Source of the DNA: Bacilli bacterium
Lineage (GTDB): Bacteria > Bacillota_I > Bacilli_A > ML615J-28 > CAG-313
Direction of reading: 5' to 3'
DNA: 64,000 bases
Assembly: GCA_017463365.1 (NCBI GenBank)
Contig: JAFTPH010000031.1
Location: 9,072-73,071 of the forward strand
The notes below the pieces were generated by a model. The model worked only from the letters and a program-made list of their open reading frames with translations, was not told the origin of the DNA and made no database searches. The position numbers and the translations under genes are program-made. Shown here one piece after another: positions 22,125 through 36,893 of the stretch (positions are counted from its first letter, which is position 1; each line of letters opens with the position of its first letter).

Positions 22125-22493
22125 GTGTGTAAAAATAGAGAAATACCAGACGATATTTTAAAAAAATTATCTCAAGAAAAGAAAAAAATAATTAATATTC
22201 CTTATATAAAAAGGGTTGTTGGAGAGACTATTGAATCTATGGAAAAAGATGTAATAGAGAAAATTTATCTTTTTGGTAGTTATGCAAGAGGAGAAGAAAC
22301 AAGTAATAGTGACATAGATTTAAGAATAGAGGGAAAAGATGGGATGAGCTTATTTGATGTTGGATACATTATTTATGAAGTAGAAGAAAAAACATGTAAA
22401 AAAGTAGATGTAATATCAGGGGACAAAATAGATGAAGTGGTATTAAACGAAATAGGAAGGGACGAAATTTGTATATATGAACAAAAAAGATGA
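22125..22493 (+). CDS. MNT-type nucleotidyltransferase antitoxin
   Basis: LFGSYARGEETSNSDIDL minimal nucleotidyltransferase motif. Overlaps the downstream HepT gene. Confidence 0.75.
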   Translation: MCKNREIPDDILKKLSQEKKKIINIPYIKRVVGETIESMEKDVIEKIYLFGSYARGEETSNSDIDLRIEGKDGMSLFDVGYIIYEVEEKTCKKVDVISGDKIDEVVLNEIGRDEICIYEQKR

Positions 22494-22803
22494 ACAAATA
22501 ATTTATCATATAAATAATCATTATCAAGAATTCAAATTGATAAAAAACTATGAAGATTTTGTTTCAAATAATATTATTAAAAAAGCAATAATATTAGATT
22601 TGATTCAAATTGGATATAATGTAAATAAACTTAGTTTTGAATTTCAAAAGCAAATAAATAAGATAAACTTAAGGGGAGTTGTTGGTATTAGAAACCATTT
22701 GGTTCATGGATATGGAACAATCGATGATAAGATTGTTTGGACCGCAATAAAAGAAAATTTGCCAGATTTCATTTTTGAAATAAACAATATTAATTTAAAA
22801 TAA
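22477..22803 (+). CDS. HepT-like HEPN (DUF86) toxin
   Basis: Rx4HxY motif (IRNHLVHGYG), small size, overlap with the MNT gene. Confidence 0.85.
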   Translation: MNKKDEQIIYHINNHYQEFKLIKNYEDFVSNNIIKKAIILDLIQIGYNVNKLSFEFQKQINKINLRGVVGIRNHLVHGYGTIDDKIVWTAIKENLPDFIFEINNINLK

Positions 22804-23234: not shown

Positions 23235-24380
23235 ATGAAGCAATTTGATTTATCTATTTACAAATTAAGCCAACCTTATTTTGATATGTTTGATGTTTTT
23301 TTAAAGGAAAAAGGAATAAGAAAAGAAATTTTTTTATTAGATAATGATATTACACCTAGTACTTACAGACAATGTAGAAAAGGTGAATATAATATTGGTC
23401 CAAAGATAATAAATAAAATGGCTAATAAATTTTCTTTAAAAGTTCCAAATGATGAATTAGTAAATGAAATAGAAATGCTTGTTAACAATATATACTTTGA
23501 TATGTATTATAAAAATTATAAATTATACGATTATTATCAAAATAAAGTAAATGAATTATTAGAAGAAAACTTGATTATTTTTCCTGTTTTAGAACTAGCA
23601 AAACTATATTTAAAATTGAGTTGTAATAAGAGTATTTCTAAAGTAGTTGAAGATAACGAAGAATTATTTGAAAGAATTAAAAAATATCAAGATTTTTTGA
23701 AAAAGGGTTTATTTGAACTATTTGAATTAGTATATTTAAGTTTTGAAAAAAATATTTCTGAAGATTGTTGGATTAAAAATTATAATAATGCTTCCGCATA
23801 TTTTATATTAACTTCAAGAAGTTATATGAATAAAAGATATATTGAAACTTTGTTTTTTGCATCGAAGTGTAAAGAGATATTGTTTATTGATGGAAATATA
23901 AATAGAACAATATATTTGAATAATACGATTATGAGTGCCTTAATACATGTGGGAAATTATGAAGAGTGTTATAATTTATCATTTCGTCAATTAAAAGCAT
24001 TGGAGTCTTTAGATTGTCAAAATCAATTTTTAATTGATGCTTCAAATAAATTTCTATTAATATCAGAATTAGGGAAAATGGAGTATAAAGAGATAATTGA
24101 AAAATGTTTAGATGATGATAATTTATTACTTACCGAAACATTATGTCTTTTAATTGCTCTTTATCAACAAGGTGTTATTGATAAAAATTTATCTCAGTAT
24201 AAAAAATATTACAAAAAATTAGAAGATGATAAGTTAGATGAAAAAAAGGCATCTGTTATAATTGCCCTTAATCAATATTTAAATTGTAAAAGAAAATCAT
24301 TATTAAATAAGCTTTTAGACTTTGAAATTATGAAGCATTTTGAAAAAATATTAGAAAAAATTGTGGAGCAACAAAATTGA
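23235..24380 (+). CDS. Putative RNPP/AimR-like regulator (weak N-terminal HTH + all-helical repeat domain)
   Basis: 381 aa. The N-terminal 70 aa look HTH-like and the rest looks like helical repeats. Size and layout resemble AimR/Rgg/PlcR-type receptors. No sequence search was done. Confidence 0.4.
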   Translation: MKQFDLSIYKLSQPYFDMFDVFLKEKGIRKEIFLLDNDITPSTYRQCRKGEYNIGPKIINKMANKFSLKVPNDELVNEIEMLVNNIYFDMYYKNYKLYDYYQNKVNELLEENLIIFPVLELAKLYLKLSCNKSISKVVEDNEELFERIKKYQDFLKKGLFELFELVYLSFEKNISEDCWIKNYNNASAYFILTSRSYMNKRYIETLFFASKCKEILFIDGNINRTIYLNNTIMSALIHVGNYEECYNLSFRQLKALESLDCQNQFLIDASNKFLLISELGKMEYKEIIEKCLDDDNLLLTETLCLLIALYQQGVIDKNLSQYKKYYKKLEDDKLDEKKASVIIALNQYLNCKRKSLLNKLLDFEIMKHFEKILEKIVEQQN

Positions 24381-24530: not shown

Positions 24531-24956
24531 ATGAAGAAATTTAAAAGAATATTTTTTGGGGTAGCGTTGTTGGTGGTATTATGCATTTTTACTATAGGAA
24601 CAATATCAGTAAATGCAGCAAGAATGATTAGAGAAGATGATAATGATCTAGGAGTAGTTTTATATTCATTAAATGATAAAGAATACTATGTAGAACTAGA
24701 TGAAGAAAATAATTGTGGATATGTTATCGAGGTTAAAAATGGTGAAGAAAATGTTATAGGAACATGTAGTATTACAGTTATATTCAGTGATGAAACAAAT
24801 GAAGTTATTGAGTATACTGATGTAAACACTGATACACATGGCTCAATAGTTATTGTAATCACTGATAATGTTTCTGGAGAAGGTTATATCCAAAATGTTG
24901 ATGGAATATTAGAAAACATATTTGAAGAAGATGAAAAAATTATTTTTATTGAATAA
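24531..24956 (+). CDS. Secreted acidic protein of unknown function
   Basis: Signal peptide MKKFKRIFFGVALLVVLCIFTIGTISVNA-ARM, D/E-rich mature part, strong SD AAGGAGG. TTGACA-17-TAAAAT promoter at about 24475-24503. Confidence 0.6.
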   Translation: MKKFKRIFFGVALLVVLCIFTIGTISVNAARMIREDDNDLGVVLYSLNDKEYYVELDEENNCGYVIEVKNGEENVIGTCSITVIFSDETNEVIEYTDVNTDTHGSIVIVITDNVSGEGYIQNVDGILENIFEEDEKIIFIE

Positions 24957-25283: not shown

Positions 25284-26012
25284 ATGAATACACTAATAAA
25301 AAAAGTATTAGAATATCAACAGAAAAATGATGAATTTCTATTTGAAGATATCATTGATGAATTAGATAAGTTAATTAATATTCAATGTTCAAAAATTGTA
25401 AAATACTATAAAGAAGATTTAAAACAAGAATTATTATTTGAAATATTCAAAGAAATACCATATTATAAACCTGAAAAAGAACTAATTAAAGATAATCTAG
25501 AATTTAACGAAATTATTATAATATTAAAAAACATAACTAAAAGTAAATATTATAAATCATTTAAGAAGAAGTACAAATTTGAGGGTGACTTATTTAATTT
25601 AAAAGACATCACAACAATGATTAATGTAATTAATGAATTTTATTTATTTTGCAATGAAAATCAATTTAGAAAGTATATAGATGTTATATGTGAACGTAGA
25701 AGGGTTGATTTTTGTAGAAAGTATAAAGTAAGTGAAAACTCGAAAAATATTAGTTTAAATGTTGTAGCAGATGACGGTGAAGAATTTCTTTATAAATTAA
25801 TTAATAAAACATCTGAAATTAAAAATTATGAAATAGACTATAGCTTATTATCTAATAAAGATGTTAAATTTCTGAAATTATTTTTTGATGGAAATGAAAA
25901 ATTGACTGAAAAAGAAGTTGCTAAAAAATTGGGTGTTACTCAGCAAGCTGTTAGTAGTATGTTAAAAAGAATTAGAGAAAGATACAAAAATAAATTTAAT
26001 AACTTGAATTAG
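25284..26012 (+). CDS. Sigma-70-family RNA polymerase sigma factor (region 2- and region 4-like segments only)
   Basis: The N-terminal segment resembles sigma region 2 (FEDIIDELDKLI...YYKEDLKQELLFEIFKEI). C-terminal region 4 HTH LTEKEVAKKLGVTQQAVSSMLKRIRERYK. Confidence 0.6.
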   Translation: MNTLIKKVLEYQQKNDEFLFEDIIDELDKLINIQCSKIVKYYKEDLKQELLFEIFKEIPYYKPEKELIKDNLEFNEIIIILKNITKSKYYKSFKKKYKFEGDLFNLKDITTMINVINEFYLFCNENQFRKYIDVICERRRVDFCRKYKVSENSKNISLNVVADDGEEFLYKLINKTSEIKNYEIDYSLLSNKDVKFLKLFFDGNEKLTEKEVAKKLGVTQQAVSSMLKRIRERYKNKFNNLN

Positions 26013-26101: not shown

Positions 26102-26386
26102 ATGGACAAGTTAACAATAGTTGTTTCAGTAATAGGGATTATTGGAACATTATCTAGTATCTTTTTTGCTTACCTTGCATGTAAAAAAAGTAATATGCAA
26201 GAGCAGAAAGTAGATGGCAAGACTGAAGGTGCAATGTTATCGGATATCGGATACATAAAAGCTTGCGTGGATCGGGTCGAAAAGAACTTAAATAAAGTAG
26301 ATGAACGATATAGGAATATTGCAGAAAGACTTGCTAAAGTAGAAGAAGCAGTGGCTAATGTAACTAAAAGAGTAGATGAACTGTAA
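26102..26386 (+). CDS. Small membrane-anchored coiled-coil protein (possible lysis accessory)
   Basis: N-terminal TM helix LTIVVSVIGIIGTLSSIFFAYLA, then a heptad-like coiled coil reminiscent of XhlA-type proteins but with the opposite topology. Confidence 0.45.
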   Translation: MDKLTIVVSVIGIIGTLSSIFFAYLACKKSNMQEQKVDGKTEGAMLSDIGYIKACVDRVEKNLNKVDERYRNIAERLAKVEEAVANVTKRVDEL

Positions 26387-26541: not shown

Positions 26542-26832
26542 ATGGATTTTACAAGTGTACCTATTATAGTTGTATGCTGCTATATCATAGGAGAAATTTA
26601 CAAAGTCTTATTTAAGAATAAGCAAGAATCATACAAACTAATACCAATAGTAATGGCTATCATTGGAGGATTATTAGGGATTATTATTTATTTAACAAAT
26701 CCAGAAATGATTTTAAATGCAGAAAATATTTGGATAGCATTAGGTATTGGTATTGTAAGTGGTGCCAGTTCTACTGGTGCAAACCAAATTATAAAACAAA
26801 TTTTTAAAAAAGGAGAAACAAAAAATGAGTGA
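26542..26832 (+). CDS. Phage-type holin
   Basis: 96 aa with three hydrophobic helices and the charged C-terminus GIVSGASSTGANQIIKQIFKKGE, typical of clostridial-phage holins. Confidence 0.7.
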   Translation: MDFTSVPIIVVCCYIIGEIYKVLFKNKQESYKLIPIVMAIIGGLLGIIIYLTNPEMILNAENIWIALGIGIVSGASSTGANQIIKQIFKKGETKNE

Positions 26833-27940
26833 ATTTGTAGATAGAAAAGGAACAAATTTAAATAAAAAGAAATTAAAAATTGTAGATATTGTTAGAGATG
26901 TATCTACAGGTGAAATTAGTGAACTTTATGTAGAGGAATTTAGAGATGATTCTGTTGGATTAGAAAGTGTTGGAACAGCAATAACAGCAGCAAATTTAAA
27001 TACTATTATTAAAAGTATGATTGAAAGTGAAGTGTATCATCAACTAAACAAAACAGATGAAGAAAAAGTGACAGAAGATGCACAAAAGTTGACTATTGAT
27101 ACATTAGTTGATGATAATTTTGATCTACCTTCTGTTGGGTATAATGGATCAACTATAACTTGGTCAGTAGTATCTGGAACTGCTATTAATATTTCTTTAA
27201 GTAAAGCAATTGTAGTTAGAGGAACAAGTAATTCAGTTGTAACATTAAAAGCAGTGATTAAAAATGGAACAGCAACAGCAACGAAGAACTTCTCTGTAAC
27301 AGTGTTAGCTCGAGAAAAAACTGATACAGAAAGAGTAAATGCTGATGCTGAAGCAATCAGTGTTCCAAGTTCAACAACTAGTTCGTTTACTTTATCAACA
27401 TTAGGTACAAATGGTTCTACAATCACATGGAGCGTTTATTCTGGAACTGGTATTGTAGTAAATAATGGAATGGCATATGTAACTAGAGCATCCACAGATA
27501 GTGATGTGACATTAAAAGCTATTGTTAAATATAATACAACATCAGTAACAAAATATTATAACGTTACAGTTTTAGCAGAGGAAGTTGTAGAAGTAACAAC
27601 AGACTTTTCACCAAAAACATTCAGCACTTCATGGACACAAGAATATGGTAATTTACGTTCAGCTAACTTAACAATTGGATCAAGTGATACAAGTGCATTA
27701 TATATAGATGTAGAAAATGATGATAGTGCAAGTATTAATGTTGTTGTAAATACAAATAGTTCTAGTTTAGTAAGACTAACAGTTTCAGAAACAAGTGGAT
27801 TAAATTCTCTTGTTGGATATACAACACCTGTATTTACTTTTTATGTACATGTATATTTAGATAATGATAGAAGTGTAAAATTGGGTACATTAACAGGTAC
27901 TGTAACATATCATTTTTCATCAGTTACACCAGATGATTAA
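26825..27940 (+). CDS. Tail-fibre-like protein with two Ig-like repeats
   Basis: N-terminus FVDRKGTNLNKKKLKI...VGTAITAANLN resembles Firmicute phage fibre proteins. Two roughly 62-aa repeats (27125-27310 and 27389-27577) with G.NGSTITWSV.SGT...VTLKA.....T..TK...VTVLA. No signal peptide. Confidence 0.45.
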   Translation: MSEFVDRKGTNLNKKKLKIVDIVRDVSTGEISELYVEEFRDDSVGLESVGTAITAANLNTIIKSMIESEVYHQLNKTDEEKVTEDAQKLTIDTLVDDNFDLPSVGYNGSTITWSVVSGTAINISLSKAIVVRGTSNSVVTLKAVIKNGTATATKNFSVTVLAREKTDTERVNADAEAISVPSSTTSSFTLSTLGTNGSTITWSVYSGTGIVVNNGMAYVTRASTDSDVTLKAIVKYNTTSVTKYYNVTVLAEEVVEVTTDFSPKTFSTSWTQEYGNLRSANLTIGSSDTSALYIDVENDDSASINVVVNTNSSSLVRLTVSETSGLNSLVGYTTPVFTFYVHVYLDNDRSVKLGTLTGTVTYHFSSVTPDD

Positions 27941-27961: not shown

Positions 27962-29335
27962 ATGAAATTTTTAAAATTAAAAGAAAAATTAAGAAATAAA
28001 TACCAATCATTAGATAATGGTAAAAAAGGATTTAAAAGAGTAAAAAGTAAAATTTTTGAAAATAAAAAAGAAATGAATGCAGATAATTTAAAAATTATTG
28101 GGATTACGGGTAGTGCAGGAAAATCAACGACAGCTTTAATAGTTCATGAATATTTAAAAATGTTAGGATATAAATCAGTTTTATATTCAAGTGCTAAAAT
28201 TGATTCTCCAGCATCAATTATTAATCCAGACGAAGCATGTGAAATTTCGTTTAATTCTGAAGAGGAATTATTAGATATTATTGAGGAAGTTGAAGCATAC
28301 GGAGCAGATTTTCTTGTTTTAGAAGTAAATGAAAGTACTATCGAAAAAGGTATTACAAAGGAAATTCCATTTGCGGTTAGAGCATTAACAAATTTAAATC
28401 CTAAACATAATTTAGAACGCTATTCTGATACTGAATATGTAGAAATTAAAAAAGCATTTTTTAAAGATATAGAAGATGATTGTAAGTGTGTTCTAGGTTT
28501 TCAAAGTTACAATAAAGAACTATTAGATGAATTATTAAAATTAAATGATTTTGAAAAATTAGTATTTACAACTAACTATATTGCAAATGTTAATGGAATT
28601 GATCCTAATATGGCAACATGTTTATTAACTGGTTTAGAATCTACTTTAGATGGATTAAAACTTAACATTAAAGTTAAAGGTGAAAAATATAAATTAGAGT
28701 CTAAATTAATGATGTCATATAATGCATTGAATTTTGTTGGTGCTATAACAATTTTAGAAGCATTAGATATTTTAGATGTTAAACAATTTGAAAAATGTAT
28801 TTATGATATTAATATTCCGGGTCGTGCTGAAGTATTTAAAGCAAATGGAAGATTAATAGTTGTTGATACACATTTACCAAAAATGCTTGAGTGTCTAAAA
28901 AGTTTTAAAGATAATGGATTAATTAGCAAAATTAAAGTAGTAGTTGGATCAATGGGACATGGCTTCAAAACATGGGAAGATAGATTTAATTCTGAACAAT
29001 TTAAAGAGATACACAAGGAAAATAAAAAATTCGCGATGGGATTATTAAAACAATATGCAGATTTTGTATATTTAACAGAAAACGATAATGCTGCAGAAAA
29101 TGTATTAGATATTTGCCTAGAACTTCAAGGATATCTAGAAGGTGATGTAGCATCTGTAATTGTTGAAGATAGAAAAGATGCTATTAGTCAAGCAATTGTT
29201 GAGTCTAAAGAAGGAGATGTAATTTTTATTTCTGGGCGTGGTAATAGAAGAGTATTATGTAATACAAAAACTACAATGAAATTATTAAAAGATAGTGAAG
29301 TTGTAAAAGAAACATTAATTAAAATAGGATGGTAA
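27962..29335 (+). CDS. Divergent Mur-ligase-family protein
   Basis: P-loop IIGITGSAGKSTT about 45 aa from the N-terminus, LVLEVNES, TNLNPKHNLERY in place of TN...DHLD, and C-terminal GDVIFISGRGN. Confidence 0.75.
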   Translation: MKFLKLKEKLRNKYQSLDNGKKGFKRVKSKIFENKKEMNADNLKIIGITGSAGKSTTALIVHEYLKMLGYKSVLYSSAKIDSPASIINPDEACEISFNSEEELLDIIEEVEAYGADFLVLEVNESTIEKGITKEIPFAVRALTNLNPKHNLERYSDTEYVEIKKAFFKDIEDDCKCVLGFQSYNKELLDELLKLNDFEKLVFTTNYIANVNGIDPNMATCLLTGLESTLDGLKLNIKVKGEKYKLESKLMMSYNALNFVGAITILEALDILDVKQFEKCIYDINIPGRAEVFKANGRLIVVDTHLPKMLECLKSFKDNGLISKIKVVVGSMGHGFKTWEDRFNSEQFKEIHKENKKFAMGLLKQYADFVYLTENDNAAENVLDICLELQGYLEGDVASVIVEDRKDAISQAIVESKEGDVIFISGRGNRRVLCNTKTTMKLLKDSEVVKETLIKIGW

Positions 29336-29339: not shown

Positions 29340-32300
29340 ATGGATAATAGTAAAATTAATCAAACGGAATTAAGTTATAAATGTGGTGCAGGTGAGTCAA
29401 AGGTTAATTTATATACTGGAAGAATGGTTTTTAACGTTATTGATGTAAATGTAGGGACAGATTCTTATGAATTAATTTTATATCATATCTATAATTCGCA
29501 TTTAGGTTTACCTGCTGGTGTAAATACTAAAGTAGGTTCTAAATGGAAATTAAATCTACAAGAGTATATTTATAAAGTTGGTACTGATTATTATTATATT
29601 GATGCTTCAGGAATGAAAATTAACTTTAAGTACCTATATGAAAATACATATTATGATACAACAGGTTTAGGAATGCAATTAAAATTATTAACTAATCAAA
29701 TCGAAATTATAGATATGGCAAACAATAAAAAAATATTTAGAAATAATCGATTAGAAGAAATAATTTCTGGTGAAAATAGCTCAATTATAAAAGAATTAAT
29801 ATATACGGATAATAAATTAACATTAATTAAAGATACAAGAAAACCAGACACAAATATTAAATTAGAGTATAATAATGATTTATTAAGTAGTATAATTGTA
29901 ACAGTAAAAAATAAAGAGCAATTAAGACTTAAATATTATTACAAAGAAAATCAATTAGTAATGATTTCTAAAATTGTTGATGGATTTGAAAAAGTTAGTA
30001 CTTTGTTTAGATATACTGGTGATAATTTAACATATGCCGTTTGCTATCAAAATAAATCAGCACTTAAATTCACATATAATTCAGCTGACAAAGTAATTAG
30101 AGTTGATACAGGTGTTGCGAAAGTTAAAACAACGAAAATTACAAAAAATAATGTATTTGTAGGGGAAAGTATTTATTGTGGCGAAAAAGATTACGTTGGT
30201 GATGTAACATATACTAATAATTATGAAATTGATGATTGTATTACGGAATATGGACAAGATTTATTAACATATAACATTATTGAATATAATGGAACTAATA
30301 GTATTGTGGAAAATGAAAAAGGTTTAAAAAATGTATATTACTTTAATGAAAATGGATTTATGGTTTCTATTTTAGAATCAGTTAATACATCAAATACAAA
30401 TTTAAAAACATTAAAGAAAATGCCGGGAAAATCTATGCTAAATGAAAACGGAGGGGATGATTCTGAAATAATTAATACTCAAAATGCTTTCAATTTGACA
30501 ACCATTTCGGAAATATCAACTTCTACAATAATGAGCGGTAGAAAAAAATCATTAGATGATTACCGTGGGAGAGAATGCGGTAATTATATAAATTATATAT
30601 GTAGTTTTTGGTTAAAATTATTAGAAGAAGTGGATAATTCAAAAGTACAATTGATTATTAATGATGATGATGATAATAAAAGTATTGTTTCATTTGATAA
30701 TTCTGCAGTTGACGCTTGGCAAGAAGTAAGAATGCCAATAAAAATTTTAGATGATAATATTAAGAGTATAAAACTAGAATTTTTAGAAAAAACTGAAAAA
30801 CATATAAAAATTGTTGATATGAAATTATACTATAGTTCAACATATAAAACTATGTTAACTAATGGAACAACATGGGCTTGTCTAGATGAAATACAAAAAA
30901 TTATTTACATTAATCAGAATGGTATAGAAGATGAAATAATATTAGATGATGATAATTTTGTTACCGAAAAAGATTTACAAATGACATATATGCACAAATT
31001 TAAATTATATGGAAATTCTAATAATTCAAATGATTATTATCCTTTATATTTAAATGATGCCACGAAACAATTAATTGTTAGTAGTTCGAAATTTTATTAT
31101 AAAATAAATGATGAAGTAAAAGAATTTCCTGTATTATTTGGGAATGATGACTATTCAACTAAAATTAAAGTTCAAAATACAAGGGCACAATATTTTATTG
31201 AATCATTATCGCCTGATGGGGATGTGTATATTTATAATATTCCACATTTTTTGAAATCAATTAATATTGATGGTGTATTTTATGATTGTTTATGCAATAT
31301 TACTGAAGGGAATAAGAATATAAAAGGTTCTAAAGAACATGAGTGCAGTTTTAAAGTTGAATGTGTTGATTTGAAGGGCAAAAAAGTTTTAACTAGAGAT
31401 GAATATGGCGTTGTAAATATATATAAATACAATAATAATGGTATTTTAAAAAATAAAATATTAACTAGTGAAAAAAATACTTCAAAAAAAATTGTGTATA
31501 ACATAGAAAGGGAATTAAATATCGAAAATGATTCAAATGAGTATTTGGTAAAAAGTGAAGATAATAGTAAAATGCAAATAAATACTAAGTATGATAAAAA
31601 AGGTAACCTAATATGTACATCAATGTTTGGATTAGAAAACCAAGATTCACAAGAATATGTTCAACAATATCATTATTCTAAATTAGATAATTTTCTTTTA
31701 TCAGTAAAAGATAATTTGGGAGGGATTAATAATATTAAATATGATGAAATGGGAAGAATCATTGAAATATCTCCTAAAAAGTATAATGATGCAAATTATT
31801 ATGGTTTTAAATTTAAATATGATAATTTTGGTGAGCCTACACATTTATATTATACATTTAAACAAGGAAATGATATCATTGATATAAAATTAGTAGAAAA
31901 AATAATTGATCGAACTAATAATTCTATCATAACTAAATATTATAGGGATGATTCTGATGAACTTAACGCAGATATTAGTAAAACAGTTTTAGATTTGTAT
32001 GGAAACATTAAGGAAATTATAATTGGTGATAAAAAGGTTACATATAAAAATCATAATTTATGGGAAAGTCCTCATTCTGCTAATGTTGAAACTATTGAAG
32101 ATGAATTAGATAATAAAACATATACATATAAATATGATGATTTTAATAATTTAACTAACTATTCTATTAATGATGAAAATGGAACAATTAGTGTTTATAA
32201 ATCAGACAATGATACTATTGAATGTGAAGAGATTTTTAATGAAAGCCATTTTAATCCTTCTGCTGGTATTGCTACTATAAAATATGAAGAAGATGTTTTA

Positions 32301-34577
32301 TTTTCTCCAAGAATTAAAGAAACAACACATCAAATATATTATGCATATCAGGGAAATCCGACAACATATGATTATGATGACCTAGGAAGGGTAAATAAAA
32401 AATATGTTAGTTATATAGATGGATTTAGTAATTTTGTAAATATGACACAAAATATAAATTTTTTAGAAAAGACTAATTGCATAAATAAAATTACTACTTC
32501 ATTTGTAGATGAAAATAAAAATAGTACAACATTTCAATCGGAATATAAATATAATCAATTTGGAAATTTAGAAGAAGATCATGTATCTATTGATGATAAT
32601 ACTAATAAATTTGTTAGAAAATATAAATATAATGAAGCTAATCAAATAATACGTGAAGAAATAGTTAATAGCAATATTACATATGAATATTATTATAATA
32701 ATGATGGTAGTATTGATTATATTAATACAAATGGGATTCAAAAAAATTACAATTATCAAAATGGGAGAATTTCATTAATTACTGAAGGTGGACTGATAAA
32801 AATTCCTTTAACATATGATAATATTGGAAATGTTAAAACTTTTGGGGCAAATTCATATTCTTGGACTAGAGGAAATTTATTGGCATCTTTTTGTAATAAT
32901 AATAGTATTACTAAATATCATTATAATGGATTTAATAAAAAATATAAAAAAGAATTGACTAATGGAATAACAATAAATTATAATTATGATAATGATAAAA
33001 TTATTTCTGAAAATTGGAGCAATGGAAATCAATTAAAATTTAGTTATGATGCTACAGGAATAACAGGTTTTTTATATAAAGAAAATGAAGGGATAATGAA
33101 TAATTATTATTATTTTGTTAAAGATGCTTTTGGTAGTGTTATATCATTGATTTATGATGGAAAAGAAGTTGCACATTATGAATATGATTCATTTGGAAAT
33201 TGTACTGTAACCAACTATACGAAGGAAAACATTGGTGATATCAACCCTATTAGATGGAAAGGAATGTATTATGAAATTGAAAGTGATGTCTATTTAATTG
33301 GAAATGATACATATTGTCCTTCATTAAGACAAAATATATCAATGAAATTATTAGAAGATATTGCAACTAGTGATTATGAAATTTATAATATATATCCTTA
33401 TCAATTAACAAATTCAAATATGTTAAATATGACTTTTGAACAAAATAATTTATTATCTTCGTTAGAATTAGTTTATGAACCAGAAAAAAAATCAAAATGG
33501 ACGAGATTCTGGGAGAAATTCTGGAGGAGTATTTTTGGGAAGATTATATCAGTTTGTTTGGCAATAATCGCTTTTGCACTTACCTGGTGGCAAGGTGGTT
33601 GGTTAGGAGTGTTATTTTTAGCAATTCCATTGGTTCTTACTTTAGGAGTGGGATGCTTAGCAGCAGGAATTGCAAGTAAACGAACAGGCAAAGGTTTTTG
33701 GAACGGTTTTGTTAATTATTTAAATAGAAACTGGTCACAAGTTGTAGGAACAGAAATGGCATTGTATTTGGTTTCGTTTGGTATTTCAAAAATAATGAAA
33801 TTAGGAACAGCAGCTGATTGTTTTAAAGCAGGTACATTGGTTCTAACATCTATCGGATTGATAAAGATTGAGGATGTTAAGGCGGGAGACAAAGTATGGA
33901 GTTATAATGAAGATACTAAAGAAAAGGAACTTAAAACAGTAAAAAGATTATTTATTAATAAAACTAAAGAATGGTTATACATAACTATAGTAAATAACGA
34001 GACTATGCAAGAAAATGAAGTTGTATGTACAAAAACACATAAAATTTACATTAAGAATAAAGGATGGATAAAAGCTAGTGAAATACTTGAAAATGATGTG
34101 GTTTTATTATATAATAACACTGAGGGAAAAGTGATAAAGAAGGACTTAAGAAAGTTAAGTCAAGAAGAATATACATATAATTTTGAGGTTGAAGATAATC
34201 ATAATTATTATATAGGAAATGATAAAATTTTAGTACATAATAAATGTAAGCCAGAATTTGAAGTGTTAGAGTTTGATGAACGTGCTATTGCGATGGCAAG
34301 AGAAGGTAATCCAACTTTTCAAACTTTTAGGAGAAGATTATTTAAATATCAAAATGAAATAGATCCTACTATGTTCCATACATATAAAAAAGGTTTAAGT
34401 CCAATAATCAATAATAAAAAGATAATTCTTCATCATCCAAAAGGACGAGTTGGTCCAAACTTATATAATGTTGTGGGGGTTACGTACCAACAACATCTTA
34501 GTATTCATGCTATAATTGGCTATCGAAATGCCCAGTGGGATGATGTAATATATCATTTAGGTAAAGGAGTATTTTAA
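29340..34577 (+). CDS. Rhs/YD-repeat polymorphic toxin with TM segment, pretoxin HINT domain and LHH-type HNH/EndoVII nuclease C-terminus
   Basis: Many YD repeats (YKYNNNG, TKYDKKGN, IKYDEMGR, YDYDDLGR, YKYNQFGN, YEYDSFGN). Rhs-core end NPIRWKGMYYE at about 33241. Hydrophobic helices at about 33530-33790. HINT from Cys1494 (33819) to HN1633-1634 (34236-34241). LHH motif at 34428-34436. Confidence 0.9.
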   Translation: MDNSKINQTELSYKCGAGESKVNLYTGRMVFNVIDVNVGTDSYELILYHIYNSHLGLPAGVNTKVGSKWKLNLQEYIYKVGTDYYYIDASGMKINFKYLYENTYYDTTGLGMQLKLLTNQIEIIDMANNKKIFRNNRLEEIISGENSSIIKELIYTDNKLTLIKDTRKPDTNIKLEYNNDLLSSIIVTVKNKEQLRLKYYYKENQLVMISKIVDGFEKVSTLFRYTGDNLTYAVCYQNKSALKFTYNSADKVIRVDTGVAKVKTTKITKNNVFVGESIYCGEKDYVGDVTYTNNYEIDDCITEYGQDLLTYNIIEYNGTNSIVENEKGLKNVYYFNENGFMVSILESVNTSNTNLKTLKKMPGKSMLNENGGDDSEIINTQNAFNLTTISEISTSTIMSGRKKSLDDYRGRECGNYINYICSFWLKLLEEVDNSKVQLIINDDDDNKSIVSFDNSAVDAWQEVRMPIKILDDNIKSIKLEFLEKTEKHIKIVDMKLYYSSTYKTMLTNGTTWACLDEIQKIIYINQNGIEDEIILDDDNFVTEKDLQMTYMHKFKLYGNSNNSNDYYPLYLNDATKQLIVSSSKFYYKINDEVKEFPVLFGNDDYSTKIKVQNTRAQYFIESLSPDGDVYIYNIPHFLKSINIDGVFYDCLCNITEGNKNIKGSKEHECSFKVECVDLKGKKVLTRDEYGVVNIYKYNNNGILKNKILTSEKNTSKKIVYNIERELNIENDSNEYLVKSEDNSKMQINTKYDKKGNLICTSMFGLENQDSQEYVQQYHYSKLDNFLLSVKDNLGGINNIKYDEMGRIIEISPKKYNDANYYGFKFKYDNFGEPTHLYYTFKQGNDIIDIKLVEKIIDRTNNSIITKYYRDDSDELNADISKTVLDLYGNIKEIIIGDKKVTYKNHNLWESPHSANVETIEDELDNKTYTYKYDDFNNLTNYSINDENGTISVYKSDNDTIECEEIFNESHFNPSAGIATIKYEEDVLFSPRIKETTHQIYYAYQGNPTTYDYDDLGRVNKKYVSYIDGFSNFVNMTQNINFLEKTNCINKITTSFVDENKNSTTFQSEYKYNQFGNLEEDHVSIDDNTNKFVRKYKYNEANQIIREEIVNSNITYEYYYNNDGSIDYINTNGIQKNYNYQNGRISLITEGGLIKIPLTYDNIGNVKTFGANSYSWTRGNLLASFCNNNSITKYHYNGFNKKYKKELTNGITINYNYDNDKIISENWSNGNQLKFSYDATGITGFLYKENEGIMNNYYYFVKDAFGSVISLIYDGKEVAHYEYDSFGNCTVTNYTKENIGDINPIRWKGMYYEIESDVYLIGNDTYCPSLRQNISMKLLEDIATSDYEIYNIYPYQLTNSNMLNMTFEQNNLLSSLELVYEPEKKSKWTRFWEKFWRSIFGKIISVCLAIIAFALTWWQGGWLGVLFLAIPLVLTLGVGCLAAGIASKRTGKGFWNGFVNYLNRNWSQVVGTEMALYLVSFGISKIMKLGTAADCFKAGTLVLTSIGLIKIEDVKAGDKVWSYNEDTKEKELKTVKRLFINKTKEWLYITIVNNETMQENEVVCTKTHKIYIKNKGWIKASEILENDVVLLYNNTEGKVIKKDLRKLSQEEYTYNFEVEDNHNYYIGNDKILVHNKCKPEFEVLEFDERAIAMAREGNPTFQTFRRRLFKYQNEIDPTMFHTYKKGLSPIINNKKIILHHPKGRVGPNLYNVVGVTYQQHLSIHAIIGYRNAQWDDVIYHLGKGVF

Positions 34578-35176
34578 TGACAAAAGAAGAACTTATAAAA
34601 GAATTAATTGATTTTGTTGAAGGAAAAATAGAAGTAAATATTATCTATGAAGACCTTCTTAAAGGAAAATTTGATAGTTTGTTAGATGTATATTTAGGTG
34701 ATAAAATTGGAATGTATGGAAAAAGTAGTGTTTTAGAATGCCTTAAAACGTGTGGTATTAAAAATTCACATGCTAGATATGGTTTTTGGCATGCGGTAGA
34801 AGCATATTTATATTTTAATGGGTACACATATAGTCCATCAAAAAAATTATATAATGAATGGTCATATAAAGTTGATATTCAACCATCATACATTTATATA
34901 GAAGATGATGTAATACTAAATAAATATATTAATGAGGCACCAAAAGGATTAAATAAAACCGAAACAAAAAAATGGATTAAAAATAGAATTAAACAAGATT
35001 TTAAATATGATAAAACTCCACCTAGATGGGTTCAGAATCCAGAATGGCCAATAGTAAATGGTGTACCATTAATATTTAAAAATCAAACTAAAATGACTTT
35101 AGATGATGAAAGAGTATATTACACTTTTTATCATCCCCAAACGTTAGAAGAAATAGTCATAGTCCAATTCTATTAA
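34577..35176 (+). CDS. Putative cognate immunity protein
   Basis: TAATG overlap with the toxin stop codon. 199 aa, cytoplasmic. Position is typical of polymorphic-toxin immunity genes. Confidence 0.6.
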   Translation: MTKEELIKELIDFVEGKIEVNIIYEDLLKGKFDSLLDVYLGDKIGMYGKSSVLECLKTCGIKNSHARYGFWHAVEAYLYFNGYTYSPSKKLYNEWSYKVDIQPSYIYIEDDVILNKYINEAPKGLNKTETKKWIKNRIKQDFKYDKTPPRWVQNPEWPIVNGVPLIFKNQTKMTLDDERVYYTFYHPQTLEEIVIVQFY

Positions 35177-35390
35177 TATAATAACGGATTTTATATTAAA
35201 ATTTTTGATTATATGTTAAAATCAAATGTAATATTATAAAATTGAATTTAAGAATTGCTATGGATTTAATGTTGCATTTCGCCTTACTTTATAGGCAGGA
35301 TAAGGAAAAAGCAACACTTCGTTGCATTTTCGAATTTCTTGCAAACTGACACGCTCAGCTTTACGCTTTTGTCCGATTATATTGTAGTTA

Positions 35391-35421
35391 AAGGAGTTAA
35401 CTTTTTTGGTTAACTCCTTTG
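35391..35421 (+). terminator. Terminator-like hairpin after the immunity gene
   Basis: AAAGGAGTTAAC-TTTTTT-GGTTAACTCCTTT. Confidence 0.55.
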
Positions 35422-35487
35422 CTTATTTGTAAGGCGAAATGCTTTGTCCACTAAAAAAATTGCCAAATTTCGTTCGACAATTTGGTA

Positions 35488-35860
35488 AAAACGTTAAACT
35501 TTTTAACTAAGACTTTCCATATATAGTGTGGGAAGTTTTTTTATTTTTAAAAATATTTTTAATTTTTTTATAAAAAACGTTTAACTTTTGACTCCTAACT
35601 TTCCATATATAGTGAGGGGACATTTTAAATTTTTTAAAATATTTTTTAAAAACACCCGTACAAAACACGAGTTTCTTTCCATATATATTGAGGGGTTATT
35701 TTTAATTTGAAAAAAAATTTATAACTTTTTTTATAAAAACGTCTAAGTTTTTGATTATAACTTTCCATATATAGTGAGGGATCATTTTAAAATTTTTAAA
35801 AATATTTTTAAAAACACCCCTACAAAACACAAAAACTTTTCCATATATATTGAGGGACTA
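35488..35860 (+). repeat. ORF-free tandem array: five copies of CTTTCCATATATAGTGAGGG in about 162-bp double units
   Basis: Cores at 35514-35533, 35600-35619, 35676-35695, 35762-35781 and 35837-35857. Spacing alternates 86/76/86/75 nt and the flanks are also conserved. Confidence 0.9.
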
Positions 35861-35962: not shown

Positions 35963-36628
35963 ATGGATCAATTTACATTTTATGATTTATATTATGAAAC
36001 ATTTAATGGATTAAAAGATGAAGAGATAGGTAGATTTATTAAAAGAATATGTAATTATGCTTTGTATGATTTAGAAGATGAAGTAAGTAAAAATGATACA
36101 GAAAATTGTTTATTTGAAATAATTTTTCCAACTTTAAAAGAAGCAACATCATTAGAAAAACAAGGAAAAGTTCCGTATTATTTAAATAGAAGTATGAAAC
36201 ATTTTACTTTTAAAATAGCATATGCAAATATAATTAAAACAATTAAAGATGAAAAGTTATCTGGTAAATTTATAAAAGCAATATGTGCTTATATGTTTGA
36301 TGATGAAATACCTGTTGATTTAACTCCACCTATTGATACATATTTTAAATTATTTAAGAAAAGTTTTGACTTAACTAAAACAAGAATTAAAAGTGGACAT
36401 AAAGGTGGAAGTAAAAAGAAAAAAGAAACTATAAATAAAAAAATAGAAACTTTAGAAGATTTTTTAAATAATAATCCTTACATTAATAATGATGTTTATA
36501 GTAAAAGTTTAATATTAAATAAAGATTATAGTCTATTAAATGAAAGACTAAAAACAAATTTAAAATATAAAGATGAAAAAAGTTTATATATAATCTTAAA
36601 AAGTTATGATGAAATTATAAAAGATTAA
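35963..36628 (+). CDS. Hypothetical protein with internal duplication (DUF6291-like)
   Basis: MDQFTFYDLYYETFNGLKDEEIGRFIKRICNYAL and a second KLSGKFIKAICAYMF unit, then a basic KSGHKGGSKKKK stretch. Confidence 0.4.
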   Translation: MDQFTFYDLYYETFNGLKDEEIGRFIKRICNYALYDLEDEVSKNDTENCLFEIIFPTLKEATSLEKQGKVPYYLNRSMKHFTFKIAYANIIKTIKDEKLSGKFIKAICAYMFDDEIPVDLTPPIDTYFKLFKKSFDLTKTRIKSGHKGGSKKKKETINKKIETLEDFLNNNPYINNDVYSKSLILNKDYSLLNERLKTNLKYKDEKSLYIILKSYDEIIKD

Positions 36629-36674
36629 CAAGCAAATGTGTAAGCAAAACTATTTGTTTTGATTTATTATTTAT

Positions 36675-36692
36675 GGCAAATTTGCCTTTTTT
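36675..36692 (+). terminator. Rho-independent terminator
   Basis: GGCAAATTTGCC followed by TTTTTT. Confidence 0.7.
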
Positions 36693-36835
36693 AAAAGCAG
36701 GATAAGTCGTTGCCACAACTGATGATACCAGTTATGACAACTCGACGCCGAAATGAATTTCGGAAGCAAGTAGGACACCTACTTCTAGTTATTAGATAAG
36801 ACTTTGAATATGATGAAACTAATTAATTTAATCCC

Positions 36836-36864
36836 TTGACATTATCGTATTACTACGATATAAT
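36836..36864 (+). promoter_or_regulatory. Consensus sigma-A promoter with palindromic spacer
   Basis: TTGACA, 17-nt spacer, TATAAT. The palindrome ATCGTA-TTAC-TACGAT spans the spacer and the first T of the -10 box. Confidence 0.65.
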
Positions 36865-36893
36865 ATAATCACAAAAAGAAGATTAATGAAAGG

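Follow-up and report, generated by a model that had tools for sequence, protein, structure and literature searches.

The Mur ligase encoded in the cassette described here lies directly behind the gene for a fibre- or adhesin-like protein, X, and the pairing of a terminal Asp or Glu of X with such a ligase is a new finding, of which no description was found in the literature searched. The window, which is the whole stretch of 64,000 nucleotides analysed from contig JAFTPH010000031.1 of a Bacilli bacterium, contains one example. We propose a new group of Mur ligases, fibre-tail-associated and lacking domain 1, each of which is encoded directly 3' of an Asp/Glu-ended fibre- or adhesin-like protein. 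Judging from sequences and models, the ligase would activate the terminal carboxylate of X and attach an amine to it, a reading to which a probability of roughly 55% is given.

As seen in Table 1, the genes for a sigma factor, a transmembrane (TM) and coiled-coil protein, a holin, X, the ligase, an Rhs protein and an immunity protein appear to form one operon. The holin and X genes overlap by 8 nt and the Rhs and immunity genes by 1 nt, and the gaps that had been read from the sequence alone, 21 nt between the X and ligase genes and 4 nt between the ligase and Rhs genes, were both measured as given. No terminator was found inside the cassette. The sigma-like product matches Sigma70_r4 of Pfam (E=9e-5) and the sigma70-ECF superfamily of NCBIfam (E=1e-5), both below cut-off, and by NCBIfam it could not be placed in the TcdR/UviA group; homologues lie upstream of the cassette at L001, L010, L014, L016, L017, L020, L052 and L055. 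The 94-aa protein matches phrog_1863, a family of unknown function (E=4e-16), and copies 55-99% identical to it are found ahead of the holin in many loci. Among related cassettes the holin is 60-99% identical.

Within the Rhs protein, the shell (about residues 1-1380) is followed by the TM cluster, PT-HINT (residues 1500-1634) and the variable C-terminal toxin. Similarity to complete close Rhs homologues runs to about residue 1636-1665; the toxin domain has no Pfam family at E<=1, and neither the toxin segment nor the downstream ORF was matched by any homologue examined. The probable immunity protein has no family match in Pfam or NCBIfam and is not conserved among cassettes, an Imm26 protein being found in its place at L001. 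The RHS/YD shell, pre-toxin domain, variable toxin end and immunity ORF together constitute a predicted Rhs polymorphic toxin system. No N-terminal TM segment was found on X, the ligase or Rhs, and no endolysin-like gene was found in the cassette. The cassette was probably assembled from a module of phage fibre, ligase and holin.

Table 1. Features of the cassette and of its products, with positions in the window.
Feature	Position	Strand	Basis
Sigma-70-family (region 4) protein, probable cassette-specific transcription factor	25284..26012	+	Sigma70_r4, sigma70-ECF
94-aa protein with N-terminal TM segment and coiled coil, companion of the holin	26102..26386	+	TM residues 2-28
Holin, Hol44 / Phage_holin_5_2 family	26542..26832	+	PF16079 E=7e-14; phrog_1129 holin E=3e-15
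Protein X, 371 aa, fibre/adhesin-like	26825..27940	+	PF20578 aBig_2 x2, AF2 model
Flexible C-terminal tail of X, FSSVTPDD (364-371), ending in Asp371, proposed acyl-donor site	27914..27937	+	AF2
MurE-derived ligase without domain 1	27962..29335	+	Mur_ligase_M and Mur_ligase_C, Lys-rich N-terminal helix
ATP-binding P-loop of the ligase, GITGSAGKSTT (residues 47-57)	28100..28132	+	invariant G47, T49, G50, G53, K54
Rhs/YD-repeat polymorphic toxin, 1745 aa	29340..34577	+	RHS_repeat, YD_repeat, PT-HINT, intein C-terminal motif
Hydrophobic TM-helix cluster in Rhs, residues 1394-1447, between shell and PT-HINT	33519..33680	+	hydropathy scan
Variable C-terminal toxin domain of Rhs, residues ~1640-1745	34257..34574	+	not conserved in homologous Rhs
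199-aa protein, probable cognate immunity	34577..35176	+	start overlaps Rhs stop by 1 nt
Two terminator-like hairpins, probable operon end	35389..35539	+	first on + strand past position 24900

The intact ligase ORF has an ATG start and a product of 457 aa. In Pfam, Mur_ligase_M (PF08245) covers residues 48-264 (E=3e-17, 63.6 bits against a cut-off of 24) and Mur_ligase_C (PF02875) covers residues 287-427 (E=9e-9, 36.6 bits against 28.4), and no match to an N-terminal Mur ligase domain was obtained. Because the alignment of E. coli MurE to the ligase starts only at MurE residue ~105, the ligase lacks domain 1; its first ~40 residues form a Lys-rich helix. The sequence-only reading had seen a P-loop close to the N-terminus and no UDP-MurNAc-binding N-domain, and both observations stand. 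The AF2 model of the ligase (pLDDT 86.9, pTM 0.87) matched Mur ligase structures at probability 1.0 in Foldseek, with MurE as the best fold match (TM 0.63-0.73) and PAP11, a MurE-like protein of plants, among the top structural matches (TM 0.72). MurE is the top match by NCBIfam, PDB sequence and Foldseek alike, and the ligase is a member of the Mur ligase superfamily, closest to MurE by sequence and fold. Nevertheless, its score is far under the cut-off of every MurE equivalog model in NCBIfam (128.8 bits against 257.3 for TIGR01085). The remote-homology and structural comparison suggested earlier has now been run, and it places the ligase nearest to MurE and not to MurT, FolC or CapB.

In NCBIfam, the folC model (E=1.4e-3, 18 bits against 162.65) and the CfbE model (E=5e-3) gave matches that did not reach their thresholds, and CapB gave none. 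FolC, CapB and CfbE share the Mur-ligase fold and have small molecules as substrates, and these weak matches are in keeping with an enzyme whose product is a small molecule or short peptide (for instance a gamma-glutamyl-type compound, co-toxin, signal or cofactor) and which is only co-transcribed with its neighbors. Such a role is highly improbable. The cassette holds no other biosynthetic gene, and it would go unexplained why the ligase strictly adjoins X, why the terminal Asp is invariant in two unrelated settings and why the ligase is missing where X-like proteins have no acidic end.

Comparisons were made among ligases of Rhs cassettes (Rhs-type), ligases of phage tail-fibre modules (phage-type) and E. 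coli MurE. Residues G47, T49, G50, G53 and K54 of the P-loop are invariant in all three. Across the wider Rhs-type family and E. coli MurE, these five residues, E121 and T143 are invariant, and N144, K163 and R288 are conserved at >=90%. When Rhs-type ligases, phage-type ligases and E. coli MurE are aligned, the P-loop, E121, K163, N257, G287, D367, R404, D419, G427 and D444 are invariant. G47-K54-S55, E121 (the Mg-binding Glu) and K163 align with their E. coli MurE counterparts; the P-loop and E121 do not vary in any of the alignments, and K163, which aligns with the carbamylated Lys of MurE, is invariant in alignments A1, A2 and A9 and conserved at >=90% in A3. Domain 3 is the best-conserved part of the ligase, for example in ISGRGNR. 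The DNPR of MurE has become E-N-D-N-A-A, GGDRDxxKR has become G-x-G-[FY]-K-x-W plus an insertion of ~16 aa, and GKGHE has become GRGNR with loss of the Glu. By these alignments, the amino-acid-binding motifs of MurE are replaced in the ligase and the predicted ATP and acyl-phosphate residues are kept. The alteration of the TN(L)xxDHLD and GKG motifs reported from the sequence alone was confirmed as TNLNPKHNLE (residues 143-152) and GRG (residues 425-427), but the His of the 'DH' motif (H149) and the carbamyl-Lys position are retained. H149 is present in the window ligase and in most Rhs-type members.

The ligase family is discrete and comprises about 65 clusters at 50% identity (E<=1e-30). Its hosts are low-GC gut Bacilli, including the wall-less Acholeplasma oculi, and the loci come mostly from metagenome contigs. 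Across about 50 loci reached through the ligase, X lies directly upstream and the holin usually further ahead; within a few nt downstream, an ORF of >=1000 aa is found in 40/50 and an ORF cut by the contig end in 6/50. Genomes carry one ligase per cassette, and up to three. A dcw/mur cluster context was not encountered, Rhs-type ligases always lying in an X-ligase-Rhs cassette. It had been asked whether the enzyme might be a housekeeping murE/murF paralogue without conserved linkage to toxin genes; this is not the case, because linkage to Rhs and holin genes was found to be conserved across dozens of genomes. A housekeeping murE paralogue is ruled out by synteny, sub-threshold scores and wall-less hosts; annotation pipelines label these genes MurE or "UDP-N-acetylmuramyl tripeptide synthase". 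Two apparent fusions of X and ligase domains, P0093 and P0110, were rejected as rearrangement junctions. No DNA near-identical to the window was found in plasmids or phages.

MurT is a Mur-ligase-fold enzyme without the UDP-binding domain that works on lipid II together with GatD. This precedent of a domain-1-less Mur ligase using lipid II, the descent of the ligase from MurE, a cassette with a holin and no endolysin, and a basic N-terminal helix that could bind membranes are all consistent with the earlier suggestion of lipid II or peptidoglycan precursors as the substrate, with the wall being remodelled for toxin passage or self-protection. The likeness to MurT is limited, however. DUF1727, the Cys4 zinc ribbon and the glutaminase GatD are all absent from the window ligase or cassette: DUF1727 gave no Pfam match in the ligase, whose C-domain is Mur_ligase_C, no gene for a glutaminase or GatD-like partner was found in the cassette, and the fold match to MurT (6gs2/6h5e) is poor in Foldseek (TM 0.44-0.45). 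Moreover, all DAP/Lys-binding residues of MurE are replaced, the ligase is present once per cassette and up to three times per genome instead of once per cell, phage-type relatives adjoin fibre genes and not lysis genes, and the idea offers no reason for the invariant terminal Asp of X. The hosts bear on both sides. Thin walls are predicted for many hosts in these orders, which would suit action on the wall, but Acholeplasmatales are without peptidoglycan (PMC10868615), and the cassette, with ligase catalytic residues largely intact, was found in Acholeplasma oculi ATCC 27350 (L046), in an Acholeplasma sp. and in Anaeroplasma MAGs. The A. oculi genome paper makes no mention of it. Given these wall-less hosts and the intact holin-X-Rhs cassettes that have no ligase, a peptidoglycan or lipid II substrate is very unlikely.

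X has an N-terminal domain followed by two Ig-like aBig_2 domains and, at about residues 260-371, a C-terminal domain folded as a beta-sandwich. Its AF2 model has a pLDDT of 86.4. Foldseek retrieved only cadherin/Ig domain arrays and no enzyme fold, and X has no TM segment. The idea of X as a cryptic endolysin was ruled out, as only Ig/cadherin-like folds and no PHROG match were obtained. In the AF2 model the final beta-strand stops at residue 363, and the tail beyond it is unstructured (pLDDT ~54). The last residue of X is acidic in 31/31 clusters (D in 28, E in 3) drawn from 47 distinct X sequences, against a background of 4.5% for D and 13.9% for D+E. The residues ahead of the terminal Asp/Glu vary, and the rest of X varies freely. 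X also ends in D in 15/15 further loci, which were sampled by a metagenome scan with a narrow alignment of the Rhs N-terminus, and in at least 8 further X proteins obtained by profile search. The A. oculi homologue of X (L046:9213-9833) has the tail ...SSQPTGD. Such a conserved terminal acid could instead bind a metal or dock a partner.

A similar arrangement can be observed in phage tail-fibre modules that have no Rhs gene. Phage-type ligases also lack domain 1 and are 25-31% identical to the window ligase (alignment A9). In 7/7 phage-type lineages, the upstream fibre-like protein ends in Asp, followed by TAA or TAG (...GGGWD, ...GGVID, ...GQAPD, ...GSASD, ...GSTGD, ...GMTGD and ...VGEGD). 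Phage-type ligases follow the tail fibre gene and not a lysis cassette, and the comparison once drawn between the ligase and an endolysin at its place in a phage lysis cassette is thereby reduced to a positional analogy. Homology between the phage-type fibre proteins and X could not be demonstrated. A scan of IMG/VR gave no match with the Rhs-type ligase alignment and one match, L130, with the phage-type alignment, and deposited phages gave only four ligase matches. Matches in Acinetobacter phages are 23.5% identical and annotated murE. Two candidate phage ligases, H3 and H4, were rejected because each is a full-length MurE from a bacterial dcw cluster that carries the false label "Bacteriophage sp.".

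Cassettes without a ligase offer a contrast. In L052-L055 the order is holin-X-Rhs, X ends in ...SSN and Rhs is intact, while L084 and L092 have X-like proteins with a non-acidic end and no ligase. Counted on clusters, an acidic X end is associated with the presence of the ligase (Fisher p=1.7e-4), with L052-L055 being one event that is physically confounded, since a single deletion could remove the last codons of X together with the ligase.

The Rhs toxin itself might be the substrate, for example by gaining amino acids on a Glu or Asp side chain or on an end left by autoproteolysis; this would help the toxin to fold, to be loaded into the shell, to stay inactive in the producing cell or to be exported. 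In essentially every Rhs-type locus the ligase and Rhs genes abut or overlap, remnants of the ligase lie beside an intact Rhs gene in L070 and L073, and when all locus pairs are taken together, co-variation of the ligase is strongest with the Rhs shell (rho 0.80, against 0.65 for X). In the close group only, ligase-X co-variation (0.60) exceeds ligase-Rhs co-variation (0.34), and the co-phylogeny is mixed on whether X or Rhs is the partner of the ligase. Modification of Rhs is nonetheless quite unlikely: phage-type relatives have an Asp-ended fibre and no Rhs gene, Rhs is intact in holin-X-Rhs cassettes without a ligase, ligases 94% identical occur with Rhs shells only ~27% identical, and no invariant acceptor can be seen, the Lys of the N-terminal MDxSKINQ being Arg in several loci. 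Ligases with a bit-score ratio >0.8 pair with unrelated X C-domains and unrelated Rhs shells; therefore, the recognised feature must be small and invariant. No ligase residue clearly co-varies with Asp- versus Glu-ending X, the sole differing residue, L305C, being uninformative. The sequence-only reading had offered modification of either the toxin or the fibre protein. The fibre is favoured by the invariant acidic end, the contrast with ligase-less cassettes and the phage modules, and the toxin less so.

Some members of the ligase family may be inactive, because H149, R288 or, in L050, several core residues are lost; H149 is not conserved in phage-type ligases and a few Rhs-type ones, and R288 is replaced by Val in the A. 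oculi ligase. Losses of this kind, and the presence of PAP11 among the best structural matches, would suit a non-catalytic or ATPase-only assembly factor, a chaperone or adaptor that binds the acidic tail of X, and perhaps Rhs, non-covalently and helps it to fold, oligomerise or reach the holin. Phage fibres often need dedicated chaperones encoded just downstream, and the co-occurrence of the X tail with the ligase would also be explained. However, none of the P-loop Lys, the Mg-binding Glu and the carbamyl-Lys position varies over a range of ~25-94% identity and two genomic contexts, which is typical of active enzymes, and domain 3, the amine-binding part of Mur ligases, is the most conserved; a purely structural role is thus considered unlikely. 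PAP11 is likewise a MurE-derived protein recruited outside peptidoglycan synthesis, to the plastid RNA polymerase, but it has a longer architecture and is a structural subunit, whereas the catalytic residues of the window ligase are strongly conserved.

In the preferred reading, the ligase would be an ATP-dependent amide ligase descended from MurE, with the UDP-binding domain 1 lost and the amino-acid pocket remodelled, and would serve as a dedicated accessory of X without building peptidoglycan. That the X tail is the substrate, which carboxylate reacts, what the amine is and what the reaction is for are all inferred, as follows. The flexible tail of X would be inserted into the cleft occupied in MurE by the D-Glu end of UDP-MurNAc-L-Ala-D-Glu, and ATP would phosphorylate a carboxylate of the terminal Asp/Glu to form an acyl phosphate. 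Attack on the acyl phosphate by an amine would then produce an amide or an isopeptide linkage. The simplest assumption is that this amine comes from a free amino acid, probably a basic one, since conserved Arg and acidic residues remain in domain 3; alternatively, it could be provided by a Lys on a second X subunit or on a partner protein. In the window, the modified X would leave the cell with the Rhs toxin via the holin.

Similar chemistry can be found in several known systems. MurE and the ligase have in common domains 2 and 3, the P-loop, the Mg-binding Glu, the 'DH' His and the carbamyl-Lys position, and MurE too activates the carboxylate of a C-terminal acidic residue, the gamma-COOH of D-Glu. 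The ligase differs in that domain 1 is missing, the substrate motifs are replaced, and it occurs outside the dcw cluster, in wall-less bacteria and phage-like contigs. The best mechanistic analogy is the MurE-like M domain of CphA1, a module acting on the C-terminal Asp of a polypeptide, which with ATP adds Arg to the beta-carboxylate of that residue (PMC9427784). CphA1 is, however, a three-domain polymerase (N, ATP-grasp G and M) working on a storage polymer, whereas the window ligase stands alone and its proposed substrate is a folded protein of 160-380 aa; the sequence relationship is also remote (TIGR02068, cyanophycin synthetase, E=3.7e-4, 18.6 bits against a cut-off of 850). ATP-dependent acyl-phosphate chemistry on a C-terminal acid is also carried out by RimK (C-terminal glutamylation of S6), tubulin tyrosine ligase and PafA (C-terminal Glu of Pup to Lys), but these enzymes have ATP-grasp or glutamine-synthetase-like folds and not the Mur ligase fold. 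X tails such as ...GPGE recall the ...GGE of Pup.

As for the cassette as a whole, TcdR-TcdE-TcdL with TcdA/B and UviA/UviB with BCN5 are clostridial loci for holin-dependent toxin export. Like the window, they combine at one locus an alternative regulator of sigma type, a holin of phage type and a large toxin that lacks a signal peptide. In contrast, the toxin of the window is an Rhs/PT-HINT protein with an immunity gene, there is no endolysin remnant, and an adhesin-like protein and a Mur-type ligase are added. A Mur-ligase-fold enzyme acting on a folded protein was not found in the literature searched, and searches on Mur ligases with Rhs/holin genes, polymorphic toxins or tail fibres, and on Acholeplasma Rhs, returned nothing relevant. 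It is a tentative and somewhat doubtful proposition that modification of X would be the first of its kind by a Mur-ligase-fold enzyme on a folded protein, producing a beta- or gamma-linked amino-acid cap at the fibre or adhesin tip that serves as a receptor-binding determinant, or joining the adhesin covalently to the Rhs particle or phage tail. Chemically, such a cap would resemble a branch on the stem peptide of peptidoglycan; it could mimic a muropeptide and be bound by the proteins for muropeptide or oligopeptide uptake on which gut Bacilli with reduced walls are predicted to rely.

The ligase represents an undescribed, discrete and widespread branch of the Mur ligases with a role other than wall synthesis, and it provides a hypothesis that can be tested at the bench, the ATP-dependent modification of a C-terminal Asp/Glu of a protein. 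Acholeplasma oculi ATCC 27350 is culturable and could serve as an experimental system. The MurE-labelled ligases may explain some of the puzzling "mur genes" in peptidoglycan-deficient lineages (PMC10868615), and, if so, wall status predicted from genomes would be confounded by these labels. Little is understood of how Rhs toxins are exported and targeted in Gram-positive and wall-less bacteria, and a conserved holin-linked Rhs cassette is now seen in abundant uncultured human-gut Bacilli of RFN20, RF39 and Acholeplasmatales-type lineages. If the proposed function is true, a new post-translational modification would exist on phage receptor-binding proteins and in Rhs delivery in these Gram-positive and wall-less bacteria, and a cell-wall enzyme would have been put to new use by phages and toxin systems whose bacterial hosts are in the course of losing the wall.

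The ligase gene of the window is intact and encodes a protein of 457 aa. Pfam models matched Mur_ligase_M at residues 48-264 (E=3e-17) and Mur_ligase_C at residues 287-427 (E=9e-9). The same search gave no hit for an N-terminal Mur ligase domain. The features named in a sequence-only reading were borne out: the P-loop GITGSAGKSTT (residues 47-57), TNLNPKHNLE (143-152), GRG in the C-domain (425-427), the missing N-terminal domain, and spacers of 21 nt before and 4 nt after the gene. All best matches are to MurE. The NCBIfam model TIGR01085 gave E=3e-37 and 128.8 bits, against a cut-off of 257.3, and E. coli MurE structures matched at E~1e-16, with the alignment beginning at MurE residue ~105. 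The confident AF2 model (pLDDT 86.9, pTM 0.87) superposes best on MurE (TM 0.63-0.73) and the plant MurE-like PAP11 (0.72), with lower values for MurF and MurC (about 0.53-0.60) and MurT (0.44). The remote-homology search and structure prediction proposed earlier for placing the enzyme therefore point to MurE as nearest, with MurT a poor match. A Lys-rich helix of ~40 residues (15 K/R versus 5 D/E) stands in place of domain 1.

When family members were aligned with authentic E. coli MurE (L009), the P-loop residues G47, T49, G50, G53 and K54, the Mg-binding E121, T143/N144, H149 (the His of 'DH'), G287/R288 and several domain-3 residues were kept, as was K163, which aligns with the carbamylated Lys of MurE. 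The MurE residues that bind DAP/Lys are changed: the ligases have G-x-G-[FY]-K-x-W with an insertion in place of the GGDRDxxKR Arg, [ES]-D-[NS]-[AG] in place of DNPR, and GRGNR in place of the GKGHE Glu. Since the catalytic core is kept and these residues are changed, the protein, a member of the Mur ligase superfamily, looks like an ATP-dependent ligase that is active on a new pair of substrates, and not a MurE. It departs from MurE in every MurE-specific respect, namely domain 1, substrate motifs, score cut-off, genomic context and host range, and it likewise does not match what defines MurT, FolC, CapB or CphA1.

As seen in the table, the ligase belongs to a cassette in which two gene pairs, holin/X and Rhs/immunity, overlap; X denotes the protein encoded directly upstream of the ligase. 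No N-terminal TM segment was found in X, ligase or Rhs of the window. Residues 1380-1640 of the Rhs protein are 34-55% identical to some homologous Rhs proteins, and the TM-like helices in it may serve toxin delivery, as an element for membrane insertion or translocation. The cassette lies within a low-GC stretch at roughly 22-44 kb, which, together with the DUF6291, TnpV and serine recombinase genes, suggests a Tn4451-like mobilisable element. The flanks are chromosomal (recF-like, gyrase-sized ORFs, serS, fhs, folD, mfd, spoVT and ribosomal-protein-sized ORFs).

Features of the window cassette, its surroundings and related loci
Feature	Locus	Position	Strand	Remarks
Nucleotidyltransferase and HepT-like RNase	window	22125-22803		overlapping; Polbeta/NTP_transf_2; MntA/HepT-type toxin-antitoxin (TA) module; left edge of low-GC stretch
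381-aa protein	window	23235-24380		no family match; between TA pair and sigma gene
141-aa protein	window	24531-24956		N-terminal hydrophobic segment; between TA pair and sigma gene
Sigma-70 region-4 protein	window	25284-26012	+	
TM/coiled-coil protein	window	26102-26386	+	phrog_1863
Hol44 holin	window	26542-26832	+	
X	window	26825-27940	+	two aBig_2 domains
Ligase	window	27962-29335	+	Mur_ligase_M and Mur_ligase_C (Pfam)
Rhs protein	window	29340-34577	+	shell; TM cluster residues 1394-1447; PT-HINT 1500-1634; variable toxin from ~1640
Rhs TM cluster	window	33519-33680		two or three hydrophobic TM-like helices between repeat shell and PT-HINT
Immunity gene (probable)	window	34577-35176	+	
Terminator-like sites	window	35389 and 35509	+	first on this strand after position 24900; just past immunity gene
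DUF6291 protein, TnpV, large serine recombinase	window	35963-39582		right of cassette
TnpV	window	36894-37235		
Large serine recombinase	window	37891-39582		563 aa, with DUF4368
Second, shorter Mur_ligase_M-only ORF	L046	7730-8764		Acholeplasma oculi ATCC 27350; 344 aa; P-loop VITGSYGKKS; just upstream of holin-like gene of cassette
38-55-aa ORF	L121	5904-6020		Lys/Glu-rich, MxKKxLxxLLxxY... (all five)
38-55-aa ORF	L122	628-756		
38-55-aa ORF	L123	1752-1892		
38-55-aa ORF	L125	5690-5854		lineage L125/126
38-55-aa ORF	L130	5855-5995		
Ligase remnant	L070	618-1852		split into two ORFs
Ligase remnant	L073	2604-4061		
574-754-aa protein	L062	2071-3849		directly upstream of Rhs (all three)
574-754-aa protein	L066	5255-6979		Holin_LLH holin upstream
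574-754-aa protein	L068	4715-6979		

An exhaustive HMMER search returned 65 clusters (50% identity) at E<=1e-30, and canonical MurE proteins of ~490 aa first appeared at ~1e-18; on these scores the ligases form a discrete family. A word-indexed search gave 491 relatives, the best 120 of which are mostly ~450 aa long, 55-94% identical, and belong to MAGs that carry the name 'Bacilli bacterium' or 'Acholeplasmatales bacterium'; in one source the protein is called 'UDP-N-acetylmuramyl...'. A scan with one genome per species yielded 42 loci, found in MAGs of uncultured Bacilli and Mollicutes, of Erysipelotrichales and of an Anaeroplasma, in 'Staphylococcus sp. CAG:324', in Acholeplasma sp. and in the cultured Acholeplasma oculi ATCC 27350. 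Additionally, several genomes carry two or three full cassettes, each with its own ligase, its own X and a different Rhs (L017/L023/L045 in UMGS116, L014/L016/L041 in CAKONV, L012/L013 in CAG:324 and L037/L044 in Acholeplasma sp.).

The gene order of holin, variable X, ligase, Rhs/PT-HINT giant and small ORF is found at 94%, 65% and 61% ligase identity. An ORF of at least 1000 aa follows the ligase within a few nt, often overlapping it, in 40 of the 50 ligase-bearing loci, and in 6 more the following ORF is cut by the contig end. The remaining 4 are L029 (contig end), L030 (IS insertion in the Rhs gene), L003 (frameshifted Rhs) and L047 (ORFs of 319 aa and 400 aa, the second cut by the contig end). 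The linkage to Rhs and holin genes, which the sequence-only reading had wished to see checked in other genomes, is thus conserved. In A. oculi the giant ORF, of 2083 aa, contains RHS repeats; upstream lie a 206-aa protein and an ORF that weakly resembles a holin (Holin_LLH, E=0.0013, below cut-off), and the ligase there keeps P-loop, Glu, His and Lys, with R288 changed to Val. Conserved cassette, wall-less hosts and two or three cassettes in several genomes rule out an ordinary murE paralogue. A role of the ligase on peptidoglycan or lipid II, one of the earlier suggestions, is very improbable, because the cassette occurs in wall-less hosts and each of several cassettes per genome has a ligase; the same facts argue against action on the producer's own wall.

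In every case the ORF directly upstream of the ligase ends in Asp, or in Glu in one clade (for example ...TPDD, ...TPED, ...NPLD, ...VVVD, ...STGD, ...PTGD in A. oculi, and ...GPGE). The sole apparent exception, L025, has two X paralogues, the first ending ...IPAD. The 47 distinct X sequences form 31 clusters (50% identity), 28 ending in D and 3 in E; among 396 other ORFs of the same loci, 4.5% end in D and 13.9% in either acidic residue, D or E. All 8 additional X proteins from a profile search also end in D. The residues preceding the terminus vary freely, which indicates selection on the terminal residue itself. The AF2 model of window X (pLDDT 86.4) consists of an N-terminal domain, a pair of Ig-like domains and, C-terminally, a beta-sandwich. 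The last strand of the sandwich stops at residue 363, and residues 364-371 (FSSVTPDD) form an unstructured, low-confidence tail. Foldseek matched only Ig/cadherin-type arrays, with no enzyme fold for X. On the model and these matches, X is an adhesin- or fibre-like protein with an exposed acidic C-terminus.

More distant relatives, the phage-type ligases, lie in phage-like contigs beside tail-fibre genes, with no Rhs gene. These 'intermediate' domain-1-less ligases from the HMMER search are 25-31% identical to the window ligase in an alignment of Rhs-type ligases (those of X-ligase-Rhs cassettes), phage-type ligases and E. coli MurE. The P-loop lies at about residue 12 in five of six sampled, namely P0173, P0175, P0178, P0167 and the L130 ligase, and P0183 and P0194 have N-terminal extensions. 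The catalytic core is common to all three groups; conservation of H149 does not extend to the phage group. Phage-type loci are L121 (tail protein, BclA_C and major head protein nearby), L123 (Mtd_N, Holin_LLH), L122, L124, L125/126, L127 and L130 (IMG/VR viral contig, 223 kb, code 4). Many in-frame TGA codons, with clean read-through in code 4, occur in L124, L125, L126, L127 and L130, which are TGA-recoded phages, presumably of Mollicutes-like hosts. Two GenBank records from human faeces labelled 'UNVERIFIED: Bacteriophage sp.' (L128, MT836147.1; L129, MT835896.1) contain ordinary dcw-cluster genes (full-length murE, murF, mraY, murD) with fhs and priA-like ORFs, and are probably bacterial DNA, not phage.

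In 7 of 7 phage-type lineages, the fibre-like protein upstream of the ligase ends in Asp (...GGGWD, ...GGVID, ...GQAPD, ...GSASD, ...GSTGD, ...GMTGD, ...VGEGD). These proteins range from 188 aa to >1889 aa where length is known, two being cut by the contig start. The codon after each terminal Asp is TAA or TAG, both of which still act as true stops when TGA is recoded. Five lineages have a 38-55-aa ORF between fibre and ligase that resembles, as judged by eye, the fused N-terminal helix of Rhs-type ligases (MKLxKLKxKLExK...), suggesting a split or fused accessory peptide. L124 and L127 have the ligase overlapping or directly after the fibre-like ORF. Because the Asp-ended fibre is present in both contexts and Rhs is absent from the phage type, the constant partner of the ligase is the Asp-ended fibre, not Rhs. 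That the ligase modifies Rhs is accordingly improbable. A fibre-ligase-holin module of a phage is the probable origin of the Rhs cassette.

Cassettes without ligase were also found. The X homologues P0274 and P0275 end ...YYFLSSN, and their loci (L052-L055) have sigma, TM/coiled-coil protein, holin, X and intact Rhs, with an X-Rhs spacer of 29 nt and no ligase detected by tblastn even at E<=1; a single deletion could have taken the last codons of X and the ligase together. Among 65 loci sampled by way of the Rhs N-terminus, with neither X nor ligase used for selection, 17 have a full-length ligase, and the L073 copy is without P-loop. X is detectable in 15 of these 17 and ends in D in all 15. 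In L084 and L092 the X-like protein has a non-acidic end and the ligase is absent. Beside more distant Rhs proteins that have long N-terminal extensions, neither X nor ligase is present. By cluster, 31 are ligase-plus/acidic versus 3 ligase-minus/non-acidic (Fisher p=1.7e-4). The ligase remnants of L070 and L073 lie where holin and X are missing and Rhs is intact, with unrelated RpiB-like or DUF2229-like sequence in the P-loop region; ligase decay after X loss would fit, or alternatively they are metagenome assembly chimeras. In another cassette type, an unrelated protein of 574-754 aa occupies the ligase slot; these proteins match no Pfam family and start MK[LFI]T[LF]G..., and two end ...LPE[YF]LR.LK.

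In MurE, the gamma-carboxylate of the C-terminal D-Glu of the substrate is activated. The ligase has lost the UDP-binding domain and kept the acyl-phosphate machinery, its amine pocket is remodelled, and the adjacent protein has an invariant, flexible acidic C-terminus. Together these features lead us to propose, with a probability of about 0.55, that the ligase would phosphorylate the terminal Asp/Glu carboxylate of X and then couple an amine to it. Near-identical ligases pair with unrelated X C-domains and unrelated Rhs shells, which would fit recognition of a small invariant feature. We infer rather than observe both the identity of the amine and the purpose of modifying X. A free amino acid, possibly a basic one, would fit the high conservation of domain 3 (ISGRGNR and invariant acidic residues); an amine from another protein, that is, cross-linking, is also possible. 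The CphA1 M domain is the nearest working likeness for the proposed reaction. RimK, tubulin tyrosine ligase and PafA would be functionally alike as protein C-terminal ligases, but their folds differ. An assembly factor that grips the X tail without ligation is unlikely, though the least so of the alternatives, and small-molecule synthesis is the least probable of all.

Full-text literature searches found no paper linking Mur ligases with Rhs/polymorphic toxins, holins or tail fibres, and the cluster goes unmentioned in the genome paper of A. oculi. Should the predicted modification of a protein be borne out, this could be a categorically new system. Unexplained 'mur group genes' are reported in 40-60% of genomes of peptidoglycan-deficient Anaeroplasmataceae (PMC10868615). 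The toxin-linked MurE-like ligase is present in an Anaeroplasma bactoclasticum MAG (L021), and at least one source gives it a MurE-type name; the ligases may therefore contribute to such calls and lie behind some of the 'mur genes' of peptidoglycan-deficient lineages. The practical corollary is that toxin-linked ligase genes are being annotated as MurE.
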